DNA of 37,017 nucleotides from Acidobacteriota bacterium (lineage in GTDB: Bacteria; Acidobacteriota; UBA4820; DSQY01): the NCBI GenBank assembly GCA_037384885.1, contig JARRNO010000013.1, forward strand, positions 1-37,017, in the 5' to 3' direction. Below the pieces are notes generated by a model. The model saw only the letters and a list, made by a program, of their open reading frames with translations, made no database searches and was not told the DNA's origin. Position numbers and translations under genes: made by a program. Shown here one piece after another: positions 13,449-21,321 of this stretch. How positions within the stretch are numbered: position 1 is the first letter of the stretch; every line of letters begins with the position of its first letter.

Positions 13449-15005
13449 GTGTTAACGACGATTCTGATTTCGCTATCGGCATTTATCCTGGGTGGAGGGA
13501 CCGTTCTCGTCTTTTCGCTGCTTCAAAGGCAATCTGAGAAGAAGGTTGCCAGGAGCAAAGCGAAAGAGATTCTGGATGAGGCGGCGCGTGAGGCGGAAAA
13601 GCTTCTCACTGAAACCGAGCTGCAGGGGAAGGAAAAACTTCTCCAGCTCGAGCAGGAACAGGACCGTCTCTGGCGCAGCCGCCAGGATGAGGTGGAGAGG
13701 CTCCGCACGGATCTCGACGCCCGCGGCCAAAAACTGGACAAAGCTCTTCGCCATACCCGCGACCAATTGAACCAGCTCAACCAGCGCGAAAAGGCTCTTC
13801 AGCAGCAGGAGGAGGAGGCTGGGGAAACCATGCGCGCTGCTAGGGAAATGCAAAAGGCCCAGCAGAGCAAGCTTGAAGAAATTGCCAATATGACACCGGC
13901 CGAAGCCAAGCAGGAACTGATGCGCCAATTCGAATTTGACGCCCGCCGTGAATCCACGCGCATCGTCAGGCGCATCGAACAGAACGCCCGGGACCGGGCC
14001 AAGAAGCTTGCGCGCATTATTCTCATTCAGGCCATAGAAAAAGTGACGCCGCATCTTCCACTGGAGGGCCTGGTCACGGTGGTACGCCTACCGAACGAGG
14101 AGATGAAGGGGCGGGTCATCGGAAGGGAAGGGCGCAATATCATGACATTTGAACGCATCACCGGTGTGGATGTGATCGTGGACGACACCCCGGAAATCAT
14201 CATGCTGGCGTGCCACAACCCCATGCGCCGGGAAATTGCGAAGCTGGCCCTCGAAAAACTCGTGGAGGATGGCAGAATCCATCCGGCTCGAATCGAAGAG
14301 TTCAACGAAAAGGCGAGAGAGCAGATCGAGGAAACGCTCTTCGAACAGGGGAAAGAAGCGCTGTTCCAGCTGGGCATTTATAACATGCACGACTACCTCA
14401 TTACCATGGTCGGCCGCATGCGGCTCCGCACGGCCCTGGGGCAGAACCTGCTGGAGCATTCCATGGAAACGGCGAAGATTGCCACATTTATCGGGCAGGC
14501 CGTGGATGTGAATGTGGACACCATCAAGCGGGCCGGCATCCTTCATGAAATCGGGCATCTGGACGAGCAGTTCGGCGAAACGCACCCCGTTCTCCTGGCC
14601 GCCCAGATCGCCAAGCAATATGGCGAACCGCAGGCCGTTGTGGACTGTATCGCACACCTGCATCCCGACCATCCCTCCACTGCTCCCGAGGCTCATATCC
14701 TGGAGTCTGCGGAACACCTTTCTCTTGCCATTCCTGGGATTCACAGGGAGGGACTCGAAAAATACGTGGAGCACCTCGAAGCCATTGAACGCATGGTTAT
14801 GGAATTCAAGGGTGTGCAGAAGGCTTATGCGGTCAAAGCCGGGCGCGAACTGCTGGTCTTTTTGGATCCCGGGCAAGCGGACGACGAATACACCGTATGG
14901 CTGGCCAAAGACGTGGCCGAACGGCTGGAGCGTGAAACACAGTTCGCGGGCCAGATCAAGGTGCAGGTCGTTCGCGAGAGCAGGCACATCGCCTACGCCA
15001 AGTAG
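13449..15005 (+). CDS. rny: Ribonuclease Y with a divergent HD domain
   Basis: N-terminal TM, coiled coil, KH (MKGRVIGREGRNI, DGRIHPARIEE), HD-like domain, C-terminal AYAVKAGREL. The HD dyad reads HE. Confidence 0.9.
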   Translation: MLTTILISLSAFILGGGTVLVFSLLQRQSEKKVARSKAKEILDEAAREAEKLLTETELQGKEKLLQLEQEQDRLWRSRQDEVERLRTDLDARGQKLDKALRHTRDQLNQLNQREKALQQQEEEAGETMRAAREMQKAQQSKLEEIANMTPAEAKQELMRQFEFDARRESTRIVRRIEQNARDRAKKLARIILIQAIEKVTPHLPLEGLVTVVRLPNEEMKGRVIGREGRNIMTFERITGVDVIVDDTPEIIMLACHNPMRREIAKLALEKLVEDGRIHPARIEEFNEKAREQIEETLFEQGKEALFQLGIYNMHDYLITMVGRMRLRTALGQNLLEHSMETAKIATFIGQAVDVNVDTIKRAGILHEIGHLDEQFGETHPVLLAAQIAKQYGEPQAVVDCIAHLHPDHPSTAPEAHILESAEHLSLAIPGIHREGLEKYVEHLEAIERMVMEFKGVQKAYAVKAGRELLVFLDPGQADDEYTVWLAKDVAERLERETQFAGQIKVQVVRESRHIAYAK

Positions 15006-15066
15006 CTGGATGGGGACGCAGAGGCGCCATCCCACCCGTTGAAAATAAACAGCAGGGGAACTCTTT

Positions 15067-15858
15067 ATGAAAATTCTTTTTCTTGGAGACATTGTCGGCC
15101 GTCCCGGGAGACGCGCCATCAGGGCTTTACTACCGGATTTGACGCGGACCTTTCTTCCGGACGTTATCGTGGCCAACGCTGAAAACGCAGCCGGCGGGTT
15201 CGGCATCAACCAAAAGATTCTTGATGAATTGTTCCAAATGGGTATCCATGTCATCACAACCGGAAATCACGTTTGGGACAAACGGGAGCTGATTCCCATC
15301 ATCGACAGGGAACCTCGCCTGATCCGCCCCATGAACTACGTTCCGGAAGCGCCCGGGAAGGGGGCTTACCGAATGGAACTCCCCACGGGAGGCGTTTTGT
15401 GGGTTATTAACCTCCAAGGCAAAATTCTCATGCCTCCCATCCAATGTCCGTTTCGAACCTTGGACCATTTCCTGGAGACACTCCCGCCGGACGAAAAGTG
15501 CGTGCTCGTTGATTTTCATGCAGAGGCAACCAGTGAAAAACGCGCCATGGGCTTTTATTTCGACGGCCGGGTCAGCCTCATGCTCGGAACCCATACGCAT
15601 GTTCCCACTGCCGATGCCGAGATTCTGGAAGGCGGAACGGGATACATCACTGATGTGGGTATGACCGGTCCTTACGCCTCGGTGATCGGCATGGATCCCC
15701 GGTCCTCCATCGAACGAATGCTTTACGGTATGCCCACAGCCTTGAATGTGGCCAAGGGGAAGCCGGCCATCGCAGCGGTTTTCGCCGAGGTTGATGAGGA
15801 AACCGGACGATGCCTATCCTTTGAGAGCCGCCTGATCAAGCTCGAAGAGTCCCGCTGA
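15067..15858 (+). CDS. ymdB: TIGR00282/YmdB family metallophosphoesterase
   Basis: GDIVG, NAENAAGG, TGNHVWD, DFHAEATSEK, GTHTHV; directly downstream of rny. Confidence 0.95.
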   Translation: MKILFLGDIVGRPGRRAIRALLPDLTRTFLPDVIVANAENAAGGFGINQKILDELFQMGIHVITTGNHVWDKRELIPIIDREPRLIRPMNYVPEAPGKGAYRMELPTGGVLWVINLQGKILMPPIQCPFRTLDHFLETLPPDEKCVLVDFHAEATSEKRAMGFYFDGRVSLMLGTHTHVPTADAEILEGGTGYITDVGMTGPYASVIGMDPRSSIERMLYGMPTALNVAKGKPAIAAVFAEVDEETGRCLSFESRLIKLEESR

Positions 15859-15882
15859 TAACGGCTGGGCCTCGCCTCTCCC

Positions 15883-15911
15883 TTGCCTGAAGACCGCGCC
15901 GGTGCTACATT
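15883..15911 (+). promoter_or_regulatory. Putative sigma70 promoter for the hypothetical + TPR-Clp operon
   Basis: TTGCCT-17 nt-TACATT with an extended TG. Confidence 0.6.
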
Positions 15912-15971
15912 TAAAAAGCAGCTGTCGGGCTGAGTCGGAAACCCGGCTCAGACAGCCCAAGGTGAGGTGCC

Positions 15972-16367
15972 ATGGCACAGAAGCTGATTCTGCGTAAACG
16001 GGACGGACAAATGATCCGGTGCGAAACCAATACGCATTTTTCGTCTTCGCTTCGCGAACTCAAGGTGATCGGTACAGACGGCGGAATACGGTCTGTCCCT
16101 CTGAACGACCTAAAGGCAGTTTTCTTTGTTCAGGACTTCGAGGGGAATCCTGCCTACCGTCCCACATCCGAATATAGCGAGGAATCGCCCAAGGCGGGGA
16201 AATCCGTTACGGTGACCTTTCCCGATGGTGAAATACTGCGCGGAAGGGTTCTCAGCATTCCGGAAGGAGGAGCGGGCTTCTTCTTGTTCCCGGCCGACCC
16301 CCTGGAGAATAACGAAAAAGTGTTCGTGGTCCGTGCGCCGGATGTGGTTGTCGAGGTGGATGAATGA
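15972..16367 (+). CDS. Conserved hypothetical protein (DUF6982-like, two small beta-rich repeats)
   Basis: SD GAGG; LKAVFFVQDFEG and VTFPDGEILRG...GFFLFPAD motifs. Family name from recall. Confidence 0.6.
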   Translation: MAQKLILRKRDGQMIRCETNTHFSSSLRELKVIGTDGGIRSVPLNDLKAVFFVQDFEGNPAYRPTSEYSEESPKAGKSVTVTFPDGEILRGRVLSIPEGGAGFFLFPADPLENNEKVFVVRAPDVVVEVDE

Positions 16368-19279
16368 ACGGCCCGCTTGACGAACTTCTTCTGAAGCTTC
16401 ATCCGCGCATCGCTTTTGCCTTGGGAGACGGTGCGCCCAATCCAAACCTCCCGGCTTCAGATGAGGGCTTTCGCCTGCTGAAGTCGTCCATGCATCTTAT
16501 TTCCATGGCCGGGCTCTCGGCGCTTCGGGAGAAGAACAATTACACCGAGGTTCTTCTCAAGAGAGCGGCTCAGGTTCTCGCCGATCCCACGATGGAGAAT
16601 CACGCCCTCTTTCAAGCCGCGCTGTTTTCAACGTATCGGGATATTTTCGGCCGCCTGTTCCCCGTCCAGTTCGCCGGCAAAGACTTGATGCCTCTCTATC
16701 TCCGCAAGTACCTGCAAATTCAGGACGCCCTCGCGAAACTCGCCCGTCTGCCGACGGAATCCAGAAAGGGGGAGCATTCTAATAAAATTGTCAGCGACGC
16801 CCTGACATTCGTGATCAACAACTGGACGGGATCGGTGGTACACCTGCGCCCCTCGAAAAGTGCGCCGGAAGGGCCCGAGGTTCTCGCAATATCGGAAGCG
16901 CCCAAGGCGGCCTACCACATCAAGACGCTCTCACACCAGATCCGGGAAGGGGTGTATTGGGTTTCGGAAACAACTCAGCCGCTGTCACTGTATCCGTTCT
17001 TTTACCACGACGGGGAGAAACGCTACCTGTTCAGGATGCTGACCTCGGACGGGGCCTTCTATAGTGAGATGGGGAAGGACGGTTATTCTTTACTGTTCAG
17101 TACAGCCCTTGTCATGGATTTGGGCGAGTTCCTCTTCAAGGCGGGGGATTACGCGCGGGCCATTGGACTTTACAAGCTCGCGGGCCCTCAGAATCGTGAA
17201 GCGGCCATCATCGTGTCCACCTTGAACCACTGCCTCACGGCCCAGGACCACGCCAAGAGGGGAGAGCCCGCAAAAGCAGCGTCCGAGTGGGAATTGGCGC
17301 TGATGGTCAAACCTGAATTTCCGGTCCTGTACCACGAGTTGGCAAGAGACTATCTGGCTTCGAACCATATTTCCCAAGCTGTTTCGGTCATGAACCGTCT
17401 CTTGGAAAGATTCCCGATCAGCGACGAAGGATATGTGGCACTGGGCGATATCTACGCGTCTAAACGTGATTGGGGGAGAGCGCAGCGTGCTTACGAGAAG
17501 GCGCTGATTCTCAATCCGCACCATGCCGAAGCAGGAGACAAGAAGAATGTGGCGCAGGTCCACCTGGAATCGAGAGCGAGGCCGGAAACAGCAAAGACAT
17601 CGGAAACGGCGGCTCTGCCTGAAGAACTTCTCGTATCGGTGACCGACCGCGTTTTGGATACTCCGAAGGAGCCCCTGGTGGGGCGCGAAGAGGACCTGGA
17701 GCAGCTCGTCCAGATTCTCTCGTGCCGTGATAAGAGAAACGCCCTGATCGTGGGAGAGGCCGGCGTAGGTAAAACAGCCCTCGTGGAGGCGCTTGCGCTG
17801 GCGATCCAAGGGGAGCATACTCCGGACCCTCTCCGGGGCAAGCGAATCTCCTCCTTGAATCTGGGCGCGTTGGTCGCAGGCGCTCGTTTCAGGGGGCAAT
17901 TCGAGGAGCGCGTTCTCCAGTTGATTCAGAAAATCCGGAACCAGGGGACATCATTCCTTAAGCATTTTCATGTGCTGAGACTTGAGGAGCTTTCTTTCGA
18001 CGCCGTGCAAGAAGTGATCCGGCAGCGAAAGACGGGCTACGAGCGTTATCACGGTGTCCGCATCCCCATTGATCTATTTGAGAATCATCTGGACCTTGTC
18101 AGAATGTCCGTTCCCAACAGATGTCTTCCCGAAAGCGTGCTGGATCTCATGGACCGGACGGCGGCGCGAGTGGCGCTGAGGGCCATGGACAGCGCACAGC
18201 CAAGTGACGTGACTCGCGCCGACCTGCTGATGACCCTCTCACAAATGTCGGGAATTTCATTTGAGCGTTTGGCCCTGTTGAAGAGGGACCGGCTGGAGGG
18301 TCTCGAAGAACTTTTGTCGGCGTATGTTATCGGGCAGGATACCGCCATCGAAAGCGTCAGCCGGGTGGTGCGGGCCGGCAAGCTGGGCTTGGATCTTAGC
18401 CCCCATCGTCCGGACGGCGTCTTCTTATTCGTGGGTCCCACGGGTGTGGGGAAGACGGAGACGGCACGCTCCCTCGCCAAGCTGCTTTTTGGCGACGAAG
18501 AGAAGCTGATTCGCATCGACATGAGCGAATACATGGAGCGAATCAGCGGCTCGCGCTTGATCGGAACGGCGCCAGGGTACGTTGGATATTACGACCAGAA
18601 CCAGTTGACCGATAAAGTGCGCCAGAACCCATACTGCGTCATCCTTTTCGATGAAGTCGAAAAGGCGGATCCGCAAGTTCTCAACCTGTTCCTCCAGATC
18701 TTTGACGCAGGCCGGCTTACAGACGGAAAGGGACGCACGGTTCGGTTCAACCATGCCACCATTATCATGACGAGCAACGTGGGAACAGGGCTGTATTCGC
18801 ACAGCCCCGTCGGCTACGGCGAACCGGACGGCAGGGGAGTGGACGAGGCTGCCATTCTTAGAGAGGTTAAGGTGGCCTTCACTCCCGAATTTCTGAACCG
18901 CCTTGATGAAGTCGTGGTGTTCAAAAATCTCACAGCAGCCTCTCTCGGCCGCATTCTCGATCTTCAACTCAGGGGACTTAGGGAAAGACTGTCACACCAG
19001 GGAAAAGTTCTGGTTCTGGATGATGATGCGAGGAGTTTCCTTTCCCACGAGGGCTATTCGTTTGAATACGGGGCGCGCAACCTCAGCAGAACACTCCGTA
19101 GACGGATCGTGGAACCGATGGCCCGGATGGCAGTGGGAAAAGACTGGGAAACCGCCCGGGGAATCCGGGTGTCTCTGGAAAACGGAGAAACGCGGCTTGT
19201 CTTGATCCAGGGCGAAGACCAGGTTCAACTGGAAGCCGAAGGGCGGGAAAATGAATTTCAGGGAGAAGGGGAGCCCTGA
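16364..19279 (+). CDS. TPR-containing Clp/Hsp100 AAA+ ATPase with a truncated first AAA module
   Basis: Unknown N-domain, TPR helices, D1 Walker A GEAGVGKT and GARFRGQFEER; intact D2 (GPTGVGKT, RIDMSEY, PGYVGY, ILFDEVEK, GRLTDGKG, PEFLNRLD, YGARNL). Confidence 0.88.
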   Translation: MNGPLDELLLKLHPRIAFALGDGAPNPNLPASDEGFRLLKSSMHLISMAGLSALREKNNYTEVLLKRAAQVLADPTMENHALFQAALFSTYRDIFGRLFPVQFAGKDLMPLYLRKYLQIQDALAKLARLPTESRKGEHSNKIVSDALTFVINNWTGSVVHLRPSKSAPEGPEVLAISEAPKAAYHIKTLSHQIREGVYWVSETTQPLSLYPFFYHDGEKRYLFRMLTSDGAFYSEMGKDGYSLLFSTALVMDLGEFLFKAGDYARAIGLYKLAGPQNREAAIIVSTLNHCLTAQDHAKRGEPAKAASEWELALMVKPEFPVLYHELARDYLASNHISQAVSVMNRLLERFPISDEGYVALGDIYASKRDWGRAQRAYEKALILNPHHAEAGDKKNVAQVHLESRARPETAKTSETAALPEELLVSVTDRVLDTPKEPLVGREEDLEQLVQILSCRDKRNALIVGEAGVGKTALVEALALAIQGEHTPDPLRGKRISSLNLGALVAGARFRGQFEERVLQLIQKIRNQGTSFLKHFHVLRLEELSFDAVQEVIRQRKTGYERYHGVRIPIDLFENHLDLVRMSVPNRCLPESVLDLMDRTAARVALRAMDSAQPSDVTRADLLMTLSQMSGISFERLALLKRDRLEGLEELLSAYVIGQDTAIESVSRVVRAGKLGLDLSPHRPDGVFLFVGPTGVGKTETARSLAKLLFGDEEKLIRIDMSEYMERISGSRLIGTAPGYVGYYDQNQLTDKVRQNPYCVILFDEVEKADPQVLNLFLQIFDAGRLTDGKGRTVRFNHATIIMTSNVGTGLYSHSPVGYGEPDGRGVDEAAILREVKVAFTPEFLNRLDEVVVFKNLTAASLGRILDLQLRGLRERLSHQGKVLVLDDDARSFLSHEGYSFEYGARNLSRTLRRRIVEPMARMAVGKDWETARGIRVSLENGETRLVLIQGEDQVQLEAEGRENEFQGEGEP

Positions 19280-19375
19280 GGGACTCCTGGGCCGCCACTC
19301 GCTGCGAGCCTTCGGCGCCGTTACCTTGATGGGCCCTTTGCATCTATAGTAACCTGATACGGAGGTAGTCAGCCC

Positions 19376-19558
19376 ATGGTTGATAGAGCACTAAGAGGAA
19401 TCGCTGGATTTTTCATTCTCATCAGTCTGGCCCTGGGGTTCTGGGTCAGCCCGTGGTGGTATCTCTTCACCGCGTTTGTTGGCCTGAACCTGCTTCAGTC
19501 ATCCTTCAGCAAATGGTGTCCGATGATGTGGATCCTAAGAAAGGCCGGTCTCCAGTGA
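19376..19558 (+). CDS. DUF2892 (YgaP-like) small membrane protein
   Basis: SD GGAGG; DRALRGIAG, two TM segments, FVGLNLLQSSFSKWCPM. Confidence 0.88.
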   Translation: MVDRALRGIAGFFILISLALGFWVSPWWYLFTAFVGLNLLQSSFSKWCPMMWILRKAGLQ

Positions 19559-19734
19559 GCTGGCAGGATCTCCTGACCTTCGGCGCCGTCCTGGTTGGAT
19601 GGTATCTTTTGAATCGTTTTCTTCTCCCGCGGATGGGAGTGAGTACTTGAATGTCCGAAACATGCAGGGTCGAGTTCGATCCAGAGAAAAACAGGAGGCC
19701 GTTGAATGGCAGGTCAAGTGATCGAAGTGAGTGA
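19555..19734 (+). CDS. Putative small single-TM selenoprotein (59 aa, U-x4-C); TGA 19648-19650 proposed as Sec
   Basis: GTG start overlaps the DUF2892 stop (GTGA). MSWQDLLTFGAVLVGWYLLNRFLLPRMGVST-(TGA)-MSETCRVEFDPEKNRRPLNGRSSDRSE*, with a hairpin 16 nt after the TGA. Without recoding the CDS ends at 19650 (31 aa). Confidence 0.65.
19667..19682 (+). promoter_or_regulatory. Candidate bacterial SECIS element
   Basis: GGGUCG-AGUU-CGAUCC, a 6-bp stem with one G-U pair; loop G at +24 after the UGA. Confidence 0.55.
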
Positions 19735-20035
19735 CAACACTTTCCAGACCGAAGTTCTGGATGCAGATCTTCCCGTTGTAGTAGATTTCTGGGCGCCATG
19801 GTGCGGTCCGTGCCGCATGGTGGGGCCGGTGGTGGAGGATCTTTCCAACGAAATGGCCGGCCAGGCCAAATTTACAAAACTGAACGTGGACGACAACCAG
19901 GGTACCGCAGCGAAGTACGGGGTAATGGCTATCCCGACGCTTCTGGTTTTCAAAGGCGGCGAGGTGGTCCAGCAACACGTGGGAGCCCTTTCCAAGCCTG
20001 CACTAAAGAACCTGATCGCCAAGGCCGCCGGCTGA
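19706..20035 (+). CDS. trxA: Thioredoxin
   Basis: SD AGGAGG; VDFWAPWCGPC, LNVD, IPTL. Confidence 0.97.
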   Translation: MAGQVIEVSDNTFQTEVLDADLPVVVDFWAPWCGPCRMVGPVVEDLSNEMAGQAKFTKLNVDDNQGTAAKYGVMAIPTLLVFKGGEVVQQHVGALSKPALKNLIAKAAG

Positions 20036-20074
20036 GACCCCCGCGCCTTGAAAGATAGGGAGGAGTAACACTCC

Positions 20075-20296
20075 ATGCCGATCTACGAATATCATTGCGA
20101 CGAGTGTGGGGTTCGCTATGAAAAGCTCGTCTTCAATACGAGTGCACCGCCGCCGCCTTGCCCCAGCTGTGGATCCGAAAAGGTCGAAAAGCTCGTGAGT
20201 GTTCCTGGCGCATGCGGGAGCGGCGATAATATTGCGTCCGCGGGTTTTTCAGGAGGAGGCGGATGCGGCGGTTCAGGCTTCGGCTGAGCAGGCTGA
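20075..20296 (+). CDS. FmdB family zinc-ribbon protein, probably with C-terminal Sec (…GCGGSGFG-U-AG*)
   Basis: MPIYEYHCDECG...CPSCGS; Gly-rich tail with Cys, TGA 20285-20287, GCA GGC, second TGA 20294-20296, then a hairpin. Ends at 20287 if not recoded. Confidence 0.8.
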
Positions 20297-20300
20297 CCCC

Positions 20301-20318
20301 CGAGCGCCGTGCGCGCCG
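20301..20318 (+). promoter_or_regulatory. Candidate bacterial SECIS element
   Basis: GCGC-CGU-GCGC (20304-20314) with weak flanking pairs; loop G at +22 after UGA 20285-20287. Confidence 0.45.
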
Positions 20319-20372
20319 ATCACGATCAACTTCTGGTCTGAATTGAGCCAGAATTTACAACATGAGAGTTCC

Positions 20373-20407
20373 GGGGCTGCCCGTTCAGAAGAGTGGGCGG
20401 CCCTTTC
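20373..20407 (+). terminator. Intrinsic terminator of the trxA operon
   Basis: GGGCTGCCC-gttcagaagagt-GGGCGGCCC followed by TTT. Confidence 0.65.
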
Positions 20408-20522
20408 CTGATTCGCGGCCGGGCGAATGGTCTGACGGAGCAGTTGAGTTCGCTGGAGATCCTTTCTAAAGGCGTCTGATGGATTGGAGGTTTAAAGACA
20501 TTGGTACATTTTGGCGCTTATA

Positions 20523-20550
20523 ACGTCCGATAAGAAATCTTATGTTAAAT
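20523..20550 (+). other. dif: dif-like XerC/XerD recombination site
   Basis: ACGTCCGATAA-GAAATC-TTATGTTAAAT has the 11-6-11 layout. The right arm equals the E. coli XerD arm and the left arm ends in ATAA. It lies in an AT-rich intergenic region between converging genes. Confidence 0.85.
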
Positions 20551-20691
20551 ATAATCCAGCAGGAAGTGGGTCCAAGGCAGCGCCGCAGAACATGAGAAGG
20601 GAGAGTGTTACTATTACGTGTAACAACAACATGTTACCCGTGCAGACATGGACATCATGTTAAGAAACAAATGTATTGGCGTATGCCATCG

Positions 20692-21321
20692 CTAGTGCTC
20701 GAACATGGCACTGAGGAGGTTCCGGATTCCCCCAAGGAGCTCGGGAAGCTTGGCGGCGACTGTCATGCCTGGAGTCAAGTAGAGTCGCTCGGCCGGGCGC
20801 GATAAGACCTCCTCCGCCTTCAGGTCCAGGCAGCCCTTGCCATGGGGCCAGGGCCCGAAAACAGCCGTCAGCAGGAACTCGGCCAAGGAAATAGCGCCAA
20901 TGGGACGGCCGCCTTGGTGCAGCTGCTCGAGAAACGTCCGTACGGCGGGTGCGGCGTCGTGGCCTGAGGGGCCATCAAAAGCGTTCATGAGGTTCTTGAC
21001 GGCGCCTTGCCCTCCGGGTATTACCAGGCCCTCCAGAATGTTAGGACTTATTTCCTCTAGCGAATATAGCTTTCCTCGTACGAGGCGCGCGGCCTCAACC
21101 ATTATTGCGCGTTCAGGGGCGGATTCATCCTCCATGGCCGTCATGTGGTCCACCACGTGAAGTTGGCGTGCGTCCATGGCGAGGCAAACCAGTTCGTGTC
21201 CGCTTTCCTGTATGGCCAACATGCCCAGGACGGCTTCGTGTGCGTCGCTTCCGTCAAACGCACCCGATCCGGAAAGGAGAATGCCTACCCGCCGCCTGCC
21301 CTTGTGTGAGACCGCCTTCAA
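20692..21321 (-). CDS. ElbB/ES1-like DJ-1/PfpI superfamily protein lacking the nucleophilic Cys
   Basis: ILLSGSGAFDGSDAHEAVL, EAARLVRG, PGGQGAVKNL, RPIGAISLA. TTG start overlaps the nrnA stop. Confidence 0.8.
   Translation of the reverse strand: MKAVSHKGRRRVGILLSGSGAFDGSDAHEAVLGMLAIQESGHELVCLAMDARQLHVVDHMTAMEDESAPERAIMVEAARLVRGKLYSLEEISPNILEGLVIPGGQGAVKNLMNAFDGPSGHDAAPAVRTFLEQLHQGGRPIGAISLAEFLLTAVFGPWPHGKGCLDLKAEEVLSRPAERLYLTPGMTVAAKLPELLGGIRNLLSAMFEH

Follow-up and report, generated by a model that had tools for sequence, protein, structure and literature searches.

A thioredoxin gene cluster from an Acidobacteriota bacterium with two predicted, uncatalogued selenoproteins and a possible selenol/thiol relay at the membrane

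The eukaryotic selenoproteins SELENOK and SELENOS are tiny single-pass membrane proteins of the endoplasmic reticulum, and their disordered cytosolic tails carry selenocysteine (Sec, U) near the C-terminus. In SELENOS, the Cys-Sec selenenylsulfide is reduced by the thioredoxin (Trx) system. Mammalian thioredoxin reductase (TrxR) is a flavoenzyme with a flexible C-terminal Gly-Cys-Sec-Gly arm, in which Cys and Sec are adjacent and which passes electrons to or from thioredoxin. YgaP is a rhodanese whose membrane domain is DUF2892. Here we describe a cluster of four short genes in a 37,017-nucleotide stretch of Acidobacteriota DNA (assembly GCA_037384885.1, contig JARRNO010000013.1, positions 1 to 37,017 of the forward strand; "the window" below). 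The cluster encodes, in order, a DUF2892 membrane protein, a membrane micro-protein (gene 2), a thioredoxin and an FmdB-family zinc-ribbon protein. Our favoured interpretation, tentative as a whole, is that the locus is a thioredoxin operon with two unrecognised selenoproteins, and that these would form a selenol/thiol relay on the cytoplasmic side of the membrane, fed by thioredoxin.

A selenoprotein of the FmdB family has already been predicted from Global Ocean Sampling data (Zhang & Gladyshev 2008, PMC2398784). The name FmdB is also used for a formylmethanofuran dehydrogenase that is unrelated to the zinc-ribbon family. The ocean protein and the present one belong to the same zinc-ribbon family (TIGR02605/COG2331) and both have a predicted Sec. 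In the ocean protein the Sec lies in a CxxC knuckle, given as CxxU (PMC2398784), U/CxxU (PMC9312934) or UxxU (PMC13188914), whereas the protein described here keeps four knuckle Cys, has the candidate Sec as its second- or third-last residue and would have its Sec insertion sequence (SECIS) in the 3′ untranslated region (3′ UTR). The table of 119 prokaryotic selenoprotein families in a 2026 review (PMC13188914) contains neither an FmdB protein with Sec in the tail nor a protein with a single helix followed by T-U-x4-C. Our literature search returned no paper joining DUF2892 with selenocysteine and nothing relevant on C-terminal-Sec zinc-ribbon selenoproteins in bacteria. Within the scope of that 119-family table together with Pfam and NCBIfam, the two proteins are very probably uncatalogued selenoproteins; Haft & Tolstoy 2025 or Table S2 of BSepDB could list either. 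The suggestion of an undescribed system, made earlier in a first-pass annotation from the letters of the window alone, agrees with these searches as far as the two selenoprotein forms are concerned.

The host organism uses selenocysteine: its assembly contains selB (356 bits), selA (333 bits), selD (350 bits) and a tRNA-Sec gene (80 bits), all scoring above their cut-offs. The selD gene (G000:C168:5263-6189) has one in-frame TGA, and SelD itself would therefore be a selenoprotein in this genome.

Read through its in-frame TGA, gene 2 encodes a single predicted transmembrane helix, then G-V-S-T-U-M-S-E-T-C and a charged tail. The helix ends in an invariant N-R and the Cys/Sec motif follows it directly. 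Across homologues the motif reads G-[VI]-x-T-[U/C]-[ML]-S-x-[STA]-C. The invariant residues of the micro-protein are W16, R21, L24, P25, G28, V29, T31, U32 and C37, and conservation is poor in the tail past the Cys. When 40 relatives were searched at the DNA level, 20 of the 24 genomes of the window's family had the region; the family set used below consists of 20 loci, the window's own and those of 19 relatives. Every one of these loci has the TGA, each time with a Cys five codons on, and in 19 a start codon lies 31 codons before the TGA.

Scanning one genome for each species brought up 175 relatives; 80 micro-protein loci were kept. These span Acidobacteriota, Geobacter and other Desulfuromonadales (including Pelovirga terrestris), Syntrophaceae, Desulfomonile, Planctomycetaceae, Bacteriovoracaceae and a metagenome-assembled genome (MAG) labelled Leptospira. 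The site codon is TGA in 78 loci and TGC in two (L056 and L057 in our numbering of loci), where the frame of the Cys form runs on uninterrupted. The residue at U+5 is Cys throughout (TGC in 42, TGT in 38), and the residue at U+2 is Ser in 71 of the 80, encoded by TCN in 65 and by AGC in six; where Ser stands at U+4, AGY (26) and TCN (24) are both used. Since synonymous codons vary while the residues are kept, selection past the TGA acts at the level of amino acids.

A profile made from 16 micro-proteins matched only 33 database proteins, 29-46 amino acids (aa) long, and as all 13 that were examined end in ...G-V-x-T, these entries appear to be cut at the TGA. Of 1.84 billion cluster representatives, 405 matched at E <= 1e-3 in an index-free HMMER search with the micro-protein profile. 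Among the best 150 of these 405, Cys stands at the Sec site in 107 (106 of them with the +5 Cys too), 31 are cut there, eight have W and two have G. The W and G residues (for example in P0225, P0226 and P0218) are apparently TGA codons translated by annotation pipelines under genetic codes 4 or 25. On the evidence of these sequences, the micro-protein is a classical Sec/Cys pair family. Four diverse members, including a natural Cys form, matched no family of Pfam-A or NCBIfam release 20; three further Cys forms had no Pfam match, and the TsoA LULAxC model (NF045695) does not match the micro-protein. Look-alikes of the Cys form in the ESM Atlas amount to one cluster, named 'hypothetical protein' (score 0.85).

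For the RNA past the TGA, the single-sequence folds in the window are uninformative, and the support for the hairpins comes from the relatives. Many of the loci belong to related genomes, which are not independent samples; no claim depends on three genomes flagged as unpublished that one of the searches included. Controls in which partner columns are slid correct for relatedness, while shuffle controls ignore it. In the 20 family loci, the hairpin of the micro-protein gene starts right after the Cys codon and has 7 base pairs (bp) and a loop of GGUC or AGUU. Pairing is found in 96.8% of cells versus 25-68% with partner columns slid, compensatory changes occur in two pairs, and none of 500 shuffles scores as high for covariation. 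The base pairs of the stem stay where the peptide that it encodes undergoes non-conservative changes (G-V-G-S-G-P versus E-V-E-F-D-P), so that selection here acts on the RNA. As L037-L051 largely repeat the genomes of L018-L036, distinct sequences were counted for the hairpins and for the FmdB codons described below. A hairpin of at least 5 bp, with the loop starting 19-25 nucleotides (nt) after UGA, is present in 69 of the 75 distinct sequences with Sec; shuffles pass the same test in 8% of cases, and other TGA triplets of these loci in 23%. Each of the 69 loops contains a G, and 19 different inner arms occur among them. The bacterial SECIS consensus has a G in the apical loop and places the loop 16-37 nt after UGA. 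On all these grounds the TGA of gene 2 is very probably a Sec codon. In the two Cys-form genes L056 and L057 a hairpin is kept right after the Cys codon, possibly as a relic SECIS.

The fourth gene belongs to the FmdB family (TIGR02605, 60.5 bits versus a cut-off of 31.3; PF09723, 57.6 versus 34.4). A zinc ribbon of 45 aa with two N-terminal CxxC motifs 17 residues apart is followed by a Gly/Ser-rich linker and by C-G-G-S-G-F-G-U-A-G-stop. In 25 sequences, C64, G65, F69 and U71 are invariant and all four knuckle positions are Cys. The tails of the 20 family loci read ...C-x5-6-U-A-G-TGA, U-A-S-TAG or U-G-TGA. Further proteins of this Sec type (FmdB-Sec) were found in other Acidobacteriota families, four Desulfobacterota MAGs, a Desulfomonile MAG, Pelovirga terrestris and one Planctomycetota genome, and the site codon is TGA in all 37 distinct sequences. 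The residue at U+1 is Ala, through all four GCN codons, or Gly, through all four GGN codons. A stop follows within two codons of the TGA in 20/20 family loci and in 10/10 loci of other Acidobacteriota, sets that had not been selected for it; the background for TGA triplets is 13%. The final stop, counted in 34 distinct sequences, is TGA in 22, TAA in seven and TAG in five. Among the best 120 of 3962 FmdB homologues (E <= 1e-6), 87 have their C-terminus at the same ...[GK]-F-x position, and their only database names are 'putative FmdB family regulatory protein' and 'zinc ribbon domain-containing protein'. In other Acidobacteriota, stop-free matches to the FmdB profile proved to have a different, Cys-rich type of tail (...C..C...C..C[KG]H).

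Since the Sec would be the second- or third-last residue, the SECIS must lie in the 3′ UTR, and a covarying hairpin is present there. In the 20 family loci 86.7% of cells pair versus 24-56% with slid partners, compensatory changes are seen in five of six pairs, and not one of 500 shuffles attains the covariation score. The loops are mostly CGUGA or CGUGC, and a hairpin of at least 5 bp is present in 33 of 34 distinct sequences. Like that of gene 2, the loop lies ~22 nt past the UGA and contains G. Taken together, these features make it very likely, if slightly less so than for gene 2, that this TGA, too, is a Sec codon. The recoding of both TGAs had been proposed in the first-pass annotation, and the comparison speaks for it: in gene 2 the Sec machinery, Cys homologues, coding selection and covarying hairpin agree, and in the FmdB gene the synonymous U+1 codons, the early second stop and the covarying 3′-UTR hairpin. 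Its two TGA-plus-hairpin signals stand as far as both hairpins covary among relatives, but neither is conspicuous when folded alone in the window.

The linkage of these genes was followed beyond the window. In the window's family the micro-protein, trx and FmdB genes are together in 20/20 loci and DUF2892 adjoins them in 19/20. In the wide set, DUF2892, Trx and FmdB all stand beside gene 2 in 17 of the 80 loci, all of them Acidobacteriota, while FmdB with or without Trx is beside it in four; most loci of Desulfuromonadales and Geobacter have the micro-protein alone. Four loci from Desulfobacterota MAGs (L062, L077, L086 and L103) have the order gene 2, a small Cys-rich open reading frame (ORF), FmdB-Sec, and in L062 and L103 Trx and a CcdA-like membrane protein follow FmdB-Sec. 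Nine further Acidobacteriota loci were found through FmdB-Sec, and Trx is directly upstream on the same strand in 6/9. Among 121 sampled Planctomycetota genomes, ten have gene 2; trx is at 3/10 of these loci, one of which has Trx, FmdB-Sec and gene 2 in this order within ~720 nt. In two database proteins, P0283 (171 aa; PF00085, E 2e-30) and P0248, a Cys-form micro-protein is fused to a thioredoxin domain.

The conserved core is the micro-protein, Trx and FmdB-Sec, found in three phyla and in three gene orders, and DUF2892, a lineage-specific addition, joins it in Acidobacteriota alone. The conservation of the four-gene set holds for this core in every family locus and extends to DUF2892 only within Acidobacteriota. 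Because the linkage recurs in three phyla and three gene orders and one type of fusion exists, a functional link is likely, and, judged from these sequences, the micro-protein, Trx and FmdB-Sec probably work together.

Other neighbours recur at some of the loci. The ORF between the micro-protein gene and FmdB-Sec in the four Desulfobacterota MAG loci (L086:2670-2873; also L062, L077 and L103) encodes a conserved Cys-rich protein of 67 aa (...H/YC.KFD.W...C....YC....CGI...), for which Pfam has no matching family and NCBIfam none that is credible. In the same four loci, a GSU2086-family protein (NF052581, 431.6 bits), distantly deoxyhypusine-synthase-like, is encoded immediately upstream of the micro-protein gene (L086:1422-2387). 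Eight Geobacter-type loci (L060, L074, L079, L095, L098, L102, L113 and L114) have a distant Trx-like gene of 28-31% identity ~1.3 kb downstream on the opposite strand, and in L060 a CcdA-like gene lies between it and the micro-protein gene.

The other two members of the cluster were assigned by profile. DUF2892 (PF11127, 44.2 bits, E 2.1e-11, gathering threshold 25.3) keeps W47, C48 and P49 invariant across 17 relatives and has Arg/Lys at both ends. The stop/start overlap of 4 nt (NTGA) between DUF2892 and the micro-ORF is kept in 18/20 family loci. The idea that DUF2892 and gene 2 form one frameshifted gene was rejected, since this overlap is kept and gene 2 occurs elsewhere without DUF2892. 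In one relative (G020, locus L023) the junction of the two is frameshifted, through either an assembly error or decay of the copy. The thioredoxin (TIGR01068, 127.9 bits versus a cut-off of 96.8) has the WCGPC active site. The genome has a second full-length paralogue on contig C128 (G000:C128:6990-7274, 125 bits), two in all, and the operon Trx may therefore be a dedicated copy.

How these proteins might act together can be outlined from their residues. The first-pass annotation had put forward a putative membrane-to-cytosol relay for sulfur, selenium or metal handling, with TrxA recycling it. Both putative selenoproteins combine Sec with a nearby Cys (U-x4-C and C-x5-6-U), so that a selenenylsulfide couple is expected in each, with thioredoxin as the obvious reductant. 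In the micro-protein, positive charges follow the helix (N-R, then K/R, then a tail rich in Lys/Arg/Glu), and because of the charge positions the positive-inside rule would place U32/C37, as well as Cys48 of DUF2892, at the cytoplasmic face. There they would be within reach of soluble Trx and the flexible FmdB tail. Trx would reduce the Cys-Sec selenenylsulfide of the FmdB tail, by analogy with the Gly-Cys-Sec-Gly arm of TrxR, and the mobile tail, or Trx directly, would in turn reduce the U-x4-C selenenylsulfide of the micro-protein. The ~6-kDa micro-protein may then act on a substrate at the membrane surface, be it a peroxide, persulfide, polysulfide or another oxidised or thiophilic small molecule, and in Acidobacteriota the translationally coupled DUF2892 would add a further interfacial Cys (WCP). 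The electron path that we prefer on this basis would run from Trx through the FmdB tail and the micro-protein to a membrane-surface substrate, and we put it forward with some reserve. More speculative, and in our estimate rather doubtful, is the reading by which the three would form a hitherto undescribed, selenium-based electron relay. In it the free-standing zinc ribbon, with its TrxR-like Cys...Sec arm, would carry electrons from a dedicated thioredoxin to the micro-protein, which would serve as a minimal reductase or peroxidase at the membrane surface and so be the bacterial counterpart to SELENOK/SELENOS.

The arrangement of the genes may have a regulatory side. The overlap between the micro-ORF and trxA is 11-32 nt in 20/20 loci of the window's family, and Sec decoding in the micro-ORF could affect trxA translation. 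As the micro-ORF ends inside trx in all 20 of these Acidobacteriota loci, such decoding could gate translation of trx and of the second selenoprotein by selenium supply. In the window, the tail of the micro-ORF (19692-19734) crosses the ribosome-binding site and start codon of trxA.

Several observations weigh against the relay or against the Sec assignments on which it builds. Folded alone, the hairpins of the window are unremarkable (z = -0.7 and 0.0), and the window's FmdB hairpin is weaker than all others in the set and the one miss of 34. There is no Cys at the FmdB Sec site in the best 120 of 3962 homologues, and a tail-restricted search for a Cys form gave only two candidates, both truncated. 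Public gene calls, moreover, end at both TGAs. The unremarkable folds, the lack of a Cys form among these FmdB homologues and the gene calls speak for the view that one or both TGAs are ordinary stops and the hairpins regulatory or terminator elements, for instance for trx translation. That view is very hard to reconcile with Cys-form micro-proteins that read straight past the site, with a +5 Cys that is invariant despite synonymous codon changes, with the use of all four synonymous codons at FmdB U+1, with a second stop, be it TGA, TAA or TAG, within two codons in 30/30 unselected loci versus 13% in the background, with G-containing loops ~22 nt from both UGAs and with a full Sec machinery, and we regard it as extremely improbable. 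Two genuine selenoprotein genes might also be functionally independent and sit beside trx, a common gene, by operon convenience. None of DUF2892, Trx and FmdB is near gene 2 in 59 of the 80 loci, so the micro-protein can work without an adjoining Trx or FmdB; FmdB-Sec was not found in a Geobacteraceae MAG that carries the micro-protein; and Pelovirga terrestris, listed as a cultured strain, holds both genes on different contigs. The two Trx fusions may be artefacts of gene calling, and P0248 loses the Trx frame after residue 139. We nevertheless consider independence improbable, given a linkage that recurs in three phyla and three gene orders, the adjacency of Trx to FmdB-Sec in six of the nine further loci, the fusions themselves, and an operon Trx that is a second paralogue and not the sole Trx of the genome. 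As to the relay proper, the membrane topology comes solely from the positive-inside rule applied by eye.

Two other roles, both live rivals of the relay, would keep the selenoproteins and their association with Trx. If the Cys/Sec pairs are ligands for soft metals or metalloids, the micro-protein and the DUF2892 Cys would acquire a thiophilic ion (Hg, Cu, Zn, Cd or As(III), for example) or pass it on, the C...U tail of FmdB would chelate it in the cytosol and Trx would keep the ligands reduced. The FmdB core is indeed a four-Cys zinc ribbon, the 2026 review remarks that C-terminal Sec may bind metals (PMC13188914), and an ArsR/SmtB-like regulator, identified by eye, lies directly upstream of gene 2 in L062. 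This ArsR-like gene, however, is found in only one of the four Desulfobacterota loci, no metal transporter, reductase or chaperone gene is present in the window's cluster or in the conserved neighbourhoods, and the consistent Trx linkage and the fusion favour redox turnover over binding; we consider such a role unlikely. Equally unlikely, in our judgement, is the trafficking of sulfur or selenium, in which persulfide or perselenide from a cysteine desulfurase, a selenocysteine lyase or sulfide stress would be passed to acceptors and Trx would release or reset the carriers. DUF2892 is the membrane domain of YgaP by its Pfam family name, which brings in the rhodanese link. A SufS-family cysteine desulfurase (TIGR01979, 576 bits; L041:988-2247) immediately precedes DUF2892, on the same strand, in 12/17 Acidobacteriota four-gene loci, and a HesB/IscA-type Fe-S gene precedes the Cys-form micro-protein in L056 (PF01521; 2176-2484) and, by eye, in L057. 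In Azospira suillum a DUF2892 gene was ~10-fold induced under H2S-oxidising conditions (PMC5358917). Against this, SufS is missing upstream in the window, genes for a rhodanese, TusA or DsrE were not found in the cluster, such neighbours are absent from most micro-protein loci outside Acidobacteriota, and the SufS adjacency may merely mark the end of a suf operon.

The features of the locus are collected in the table. The four ORFs run head to tail on the + strand over 19376-20296: the DUF2892 stop and the micro-ORF start overlap by 4 nt, the end of the micro-ORF lies 29 nt within trxA, and a gap of 39 nt separates trxA from FmdB. Under translation table 11 the micro-ORF stops at its TGA (19648-19650), that is, after 31 codons. 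The first-pass annotation had described four short, overlapping or closely spaced genes with a candidate redox residue in each (WCP, U-x4-C, WCGPC, and two CxxC plus C-x6-U), and its coordinates, spacing and residues agree with ours in every detail checked. Its single shared terminator fared less well: a 14-bp hairpin exists at 20373-20404, but because its U-tract is short and a consensus terminator scan of 19200-20700 did not list it, giving only weak intragenic sites, one common terminator is no more than plausible. A sigma-70 promoter scan of 19200-20700 gave 0 sites, and an Rfam scan of the whole window at gathering thresholds gave 0 matches; the window has no tRNA. Upstream (13449-19279) lie genes for RNase Y, YmdB, DUF6982 and a 971-aa ClpB-like AAA+ protein with TPR repeats, and downstream, on the opposite strand, DJ-1-like and DHH/NrnA genes; the flanking genes are unrelated housekeeping genes.

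Table. Features of the gene cluster and their positions in the window (Sec, selenocysteine)
Feature	Position	Strand	Remarks
DUF2892/YgaP-like membrane protein	19376..19558	+	60 aa, two helices; W47-C48-P49; PF11127
Micro-protein (gene 2)	19555..19734	+	GTG start, stop TGA 19732-19734; 59 aa if TGA is Sec
In-frame TGA of micro-protein, candidate Sec codon	19648..19650	+	TGA in 78, TGC in 2 of 80 genomic loci
TGC Cys codon five codons after micro-protein TGA (predicted resolving Cys, U-x4-C)	19663..19665	+	
SECIS-like hairpin of micro-protein gene	19667..19682	+	6 bp, loop AGUU, loop start 22 nt after UGA; from folding
trxA thioredoxin	19706..20035	+	109 aa, WCGPC; TIGR01068
FmdB-family zinc ribbon	20075..20296	+	73 aa if TGA is Sec; TIGR02605, PF09723
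In-frame TGA of FmdB, candidate Sec codon	20285..20287	+	followed by GCA GGC and stop TGA 20294-20296
SECIS-like hairpin, FmdB 3′ UTR	20301..20318	+	4 bp, bulge, 2 bp; loop CGUGC; from folding
Terminator-like hairpin 3′ of operon	20373..20404	+	14 bp, short U-tract; from folding

If confirmed, the two proteins would enlarge the bacterial selenoproteome by two families. Both are systematically cut at the TGA by gene callers: of the micro-protein they report a fragment of 29-31 aa or nothing, and FmdB calls drop the last two or three residues, including the would-be reactive one. Both families are widespread, with 405 representatives of the micro-protein and the cut form in 87 of the best 120 FmdB matches. 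Confirmation would also give the long-unexplained FmdB zinc ribbon and a micro-membrane protein a biochemical setting, thioredoxin.

Among described families, the FmdB tail resembles UXX-star 1 and 2 (NF041114, NF041211), KCU-star/DUF466 (NF033934) and the Cys-Cys-COOH protein SaoC (NF040734) in having Sec 1-3 residues before the stop and the SECIS past the ORF. None of these NCBI models matches the FmdB protein at E <= 1, and its fold is a zinc ribbon, not glutaredoxin-like; NF041211 matches a different, glutaredoxin-like locus of the genome on contig C49. For such C-terminal-Sec families a thiol/selenol or metal-ligand role has been proposed in the 2026 review (PMC13188914). CxxC_Se_CxxC (NF041197) is likewise small and combines two CxxC motifs with a single Sec, but by the name of the model its Sec lies between the CxxC motifs, and it has no match at the locus, the best match in the genome being 15 bits elsewhere. 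The first gene shares with E. coli YgaP the PF11127 transmembrane domain family and the conserved Cys-Pro; unlike YgaP it has no rhodanese domain, and it is a stand-alone protein of 60 aa, translationally coupled to a selenoprotein gene. The FmdB tail and the TrxR arm are both flexible and C-terminal with a Cys/Sec pair, the former attached to a zinc ribbon and with C-x5-6-U spacing. The micro-protein, likened here by description to SELENOK and SELENOS, is as tiny and single-pass as they are, with its predicted Sec directly after the helix.

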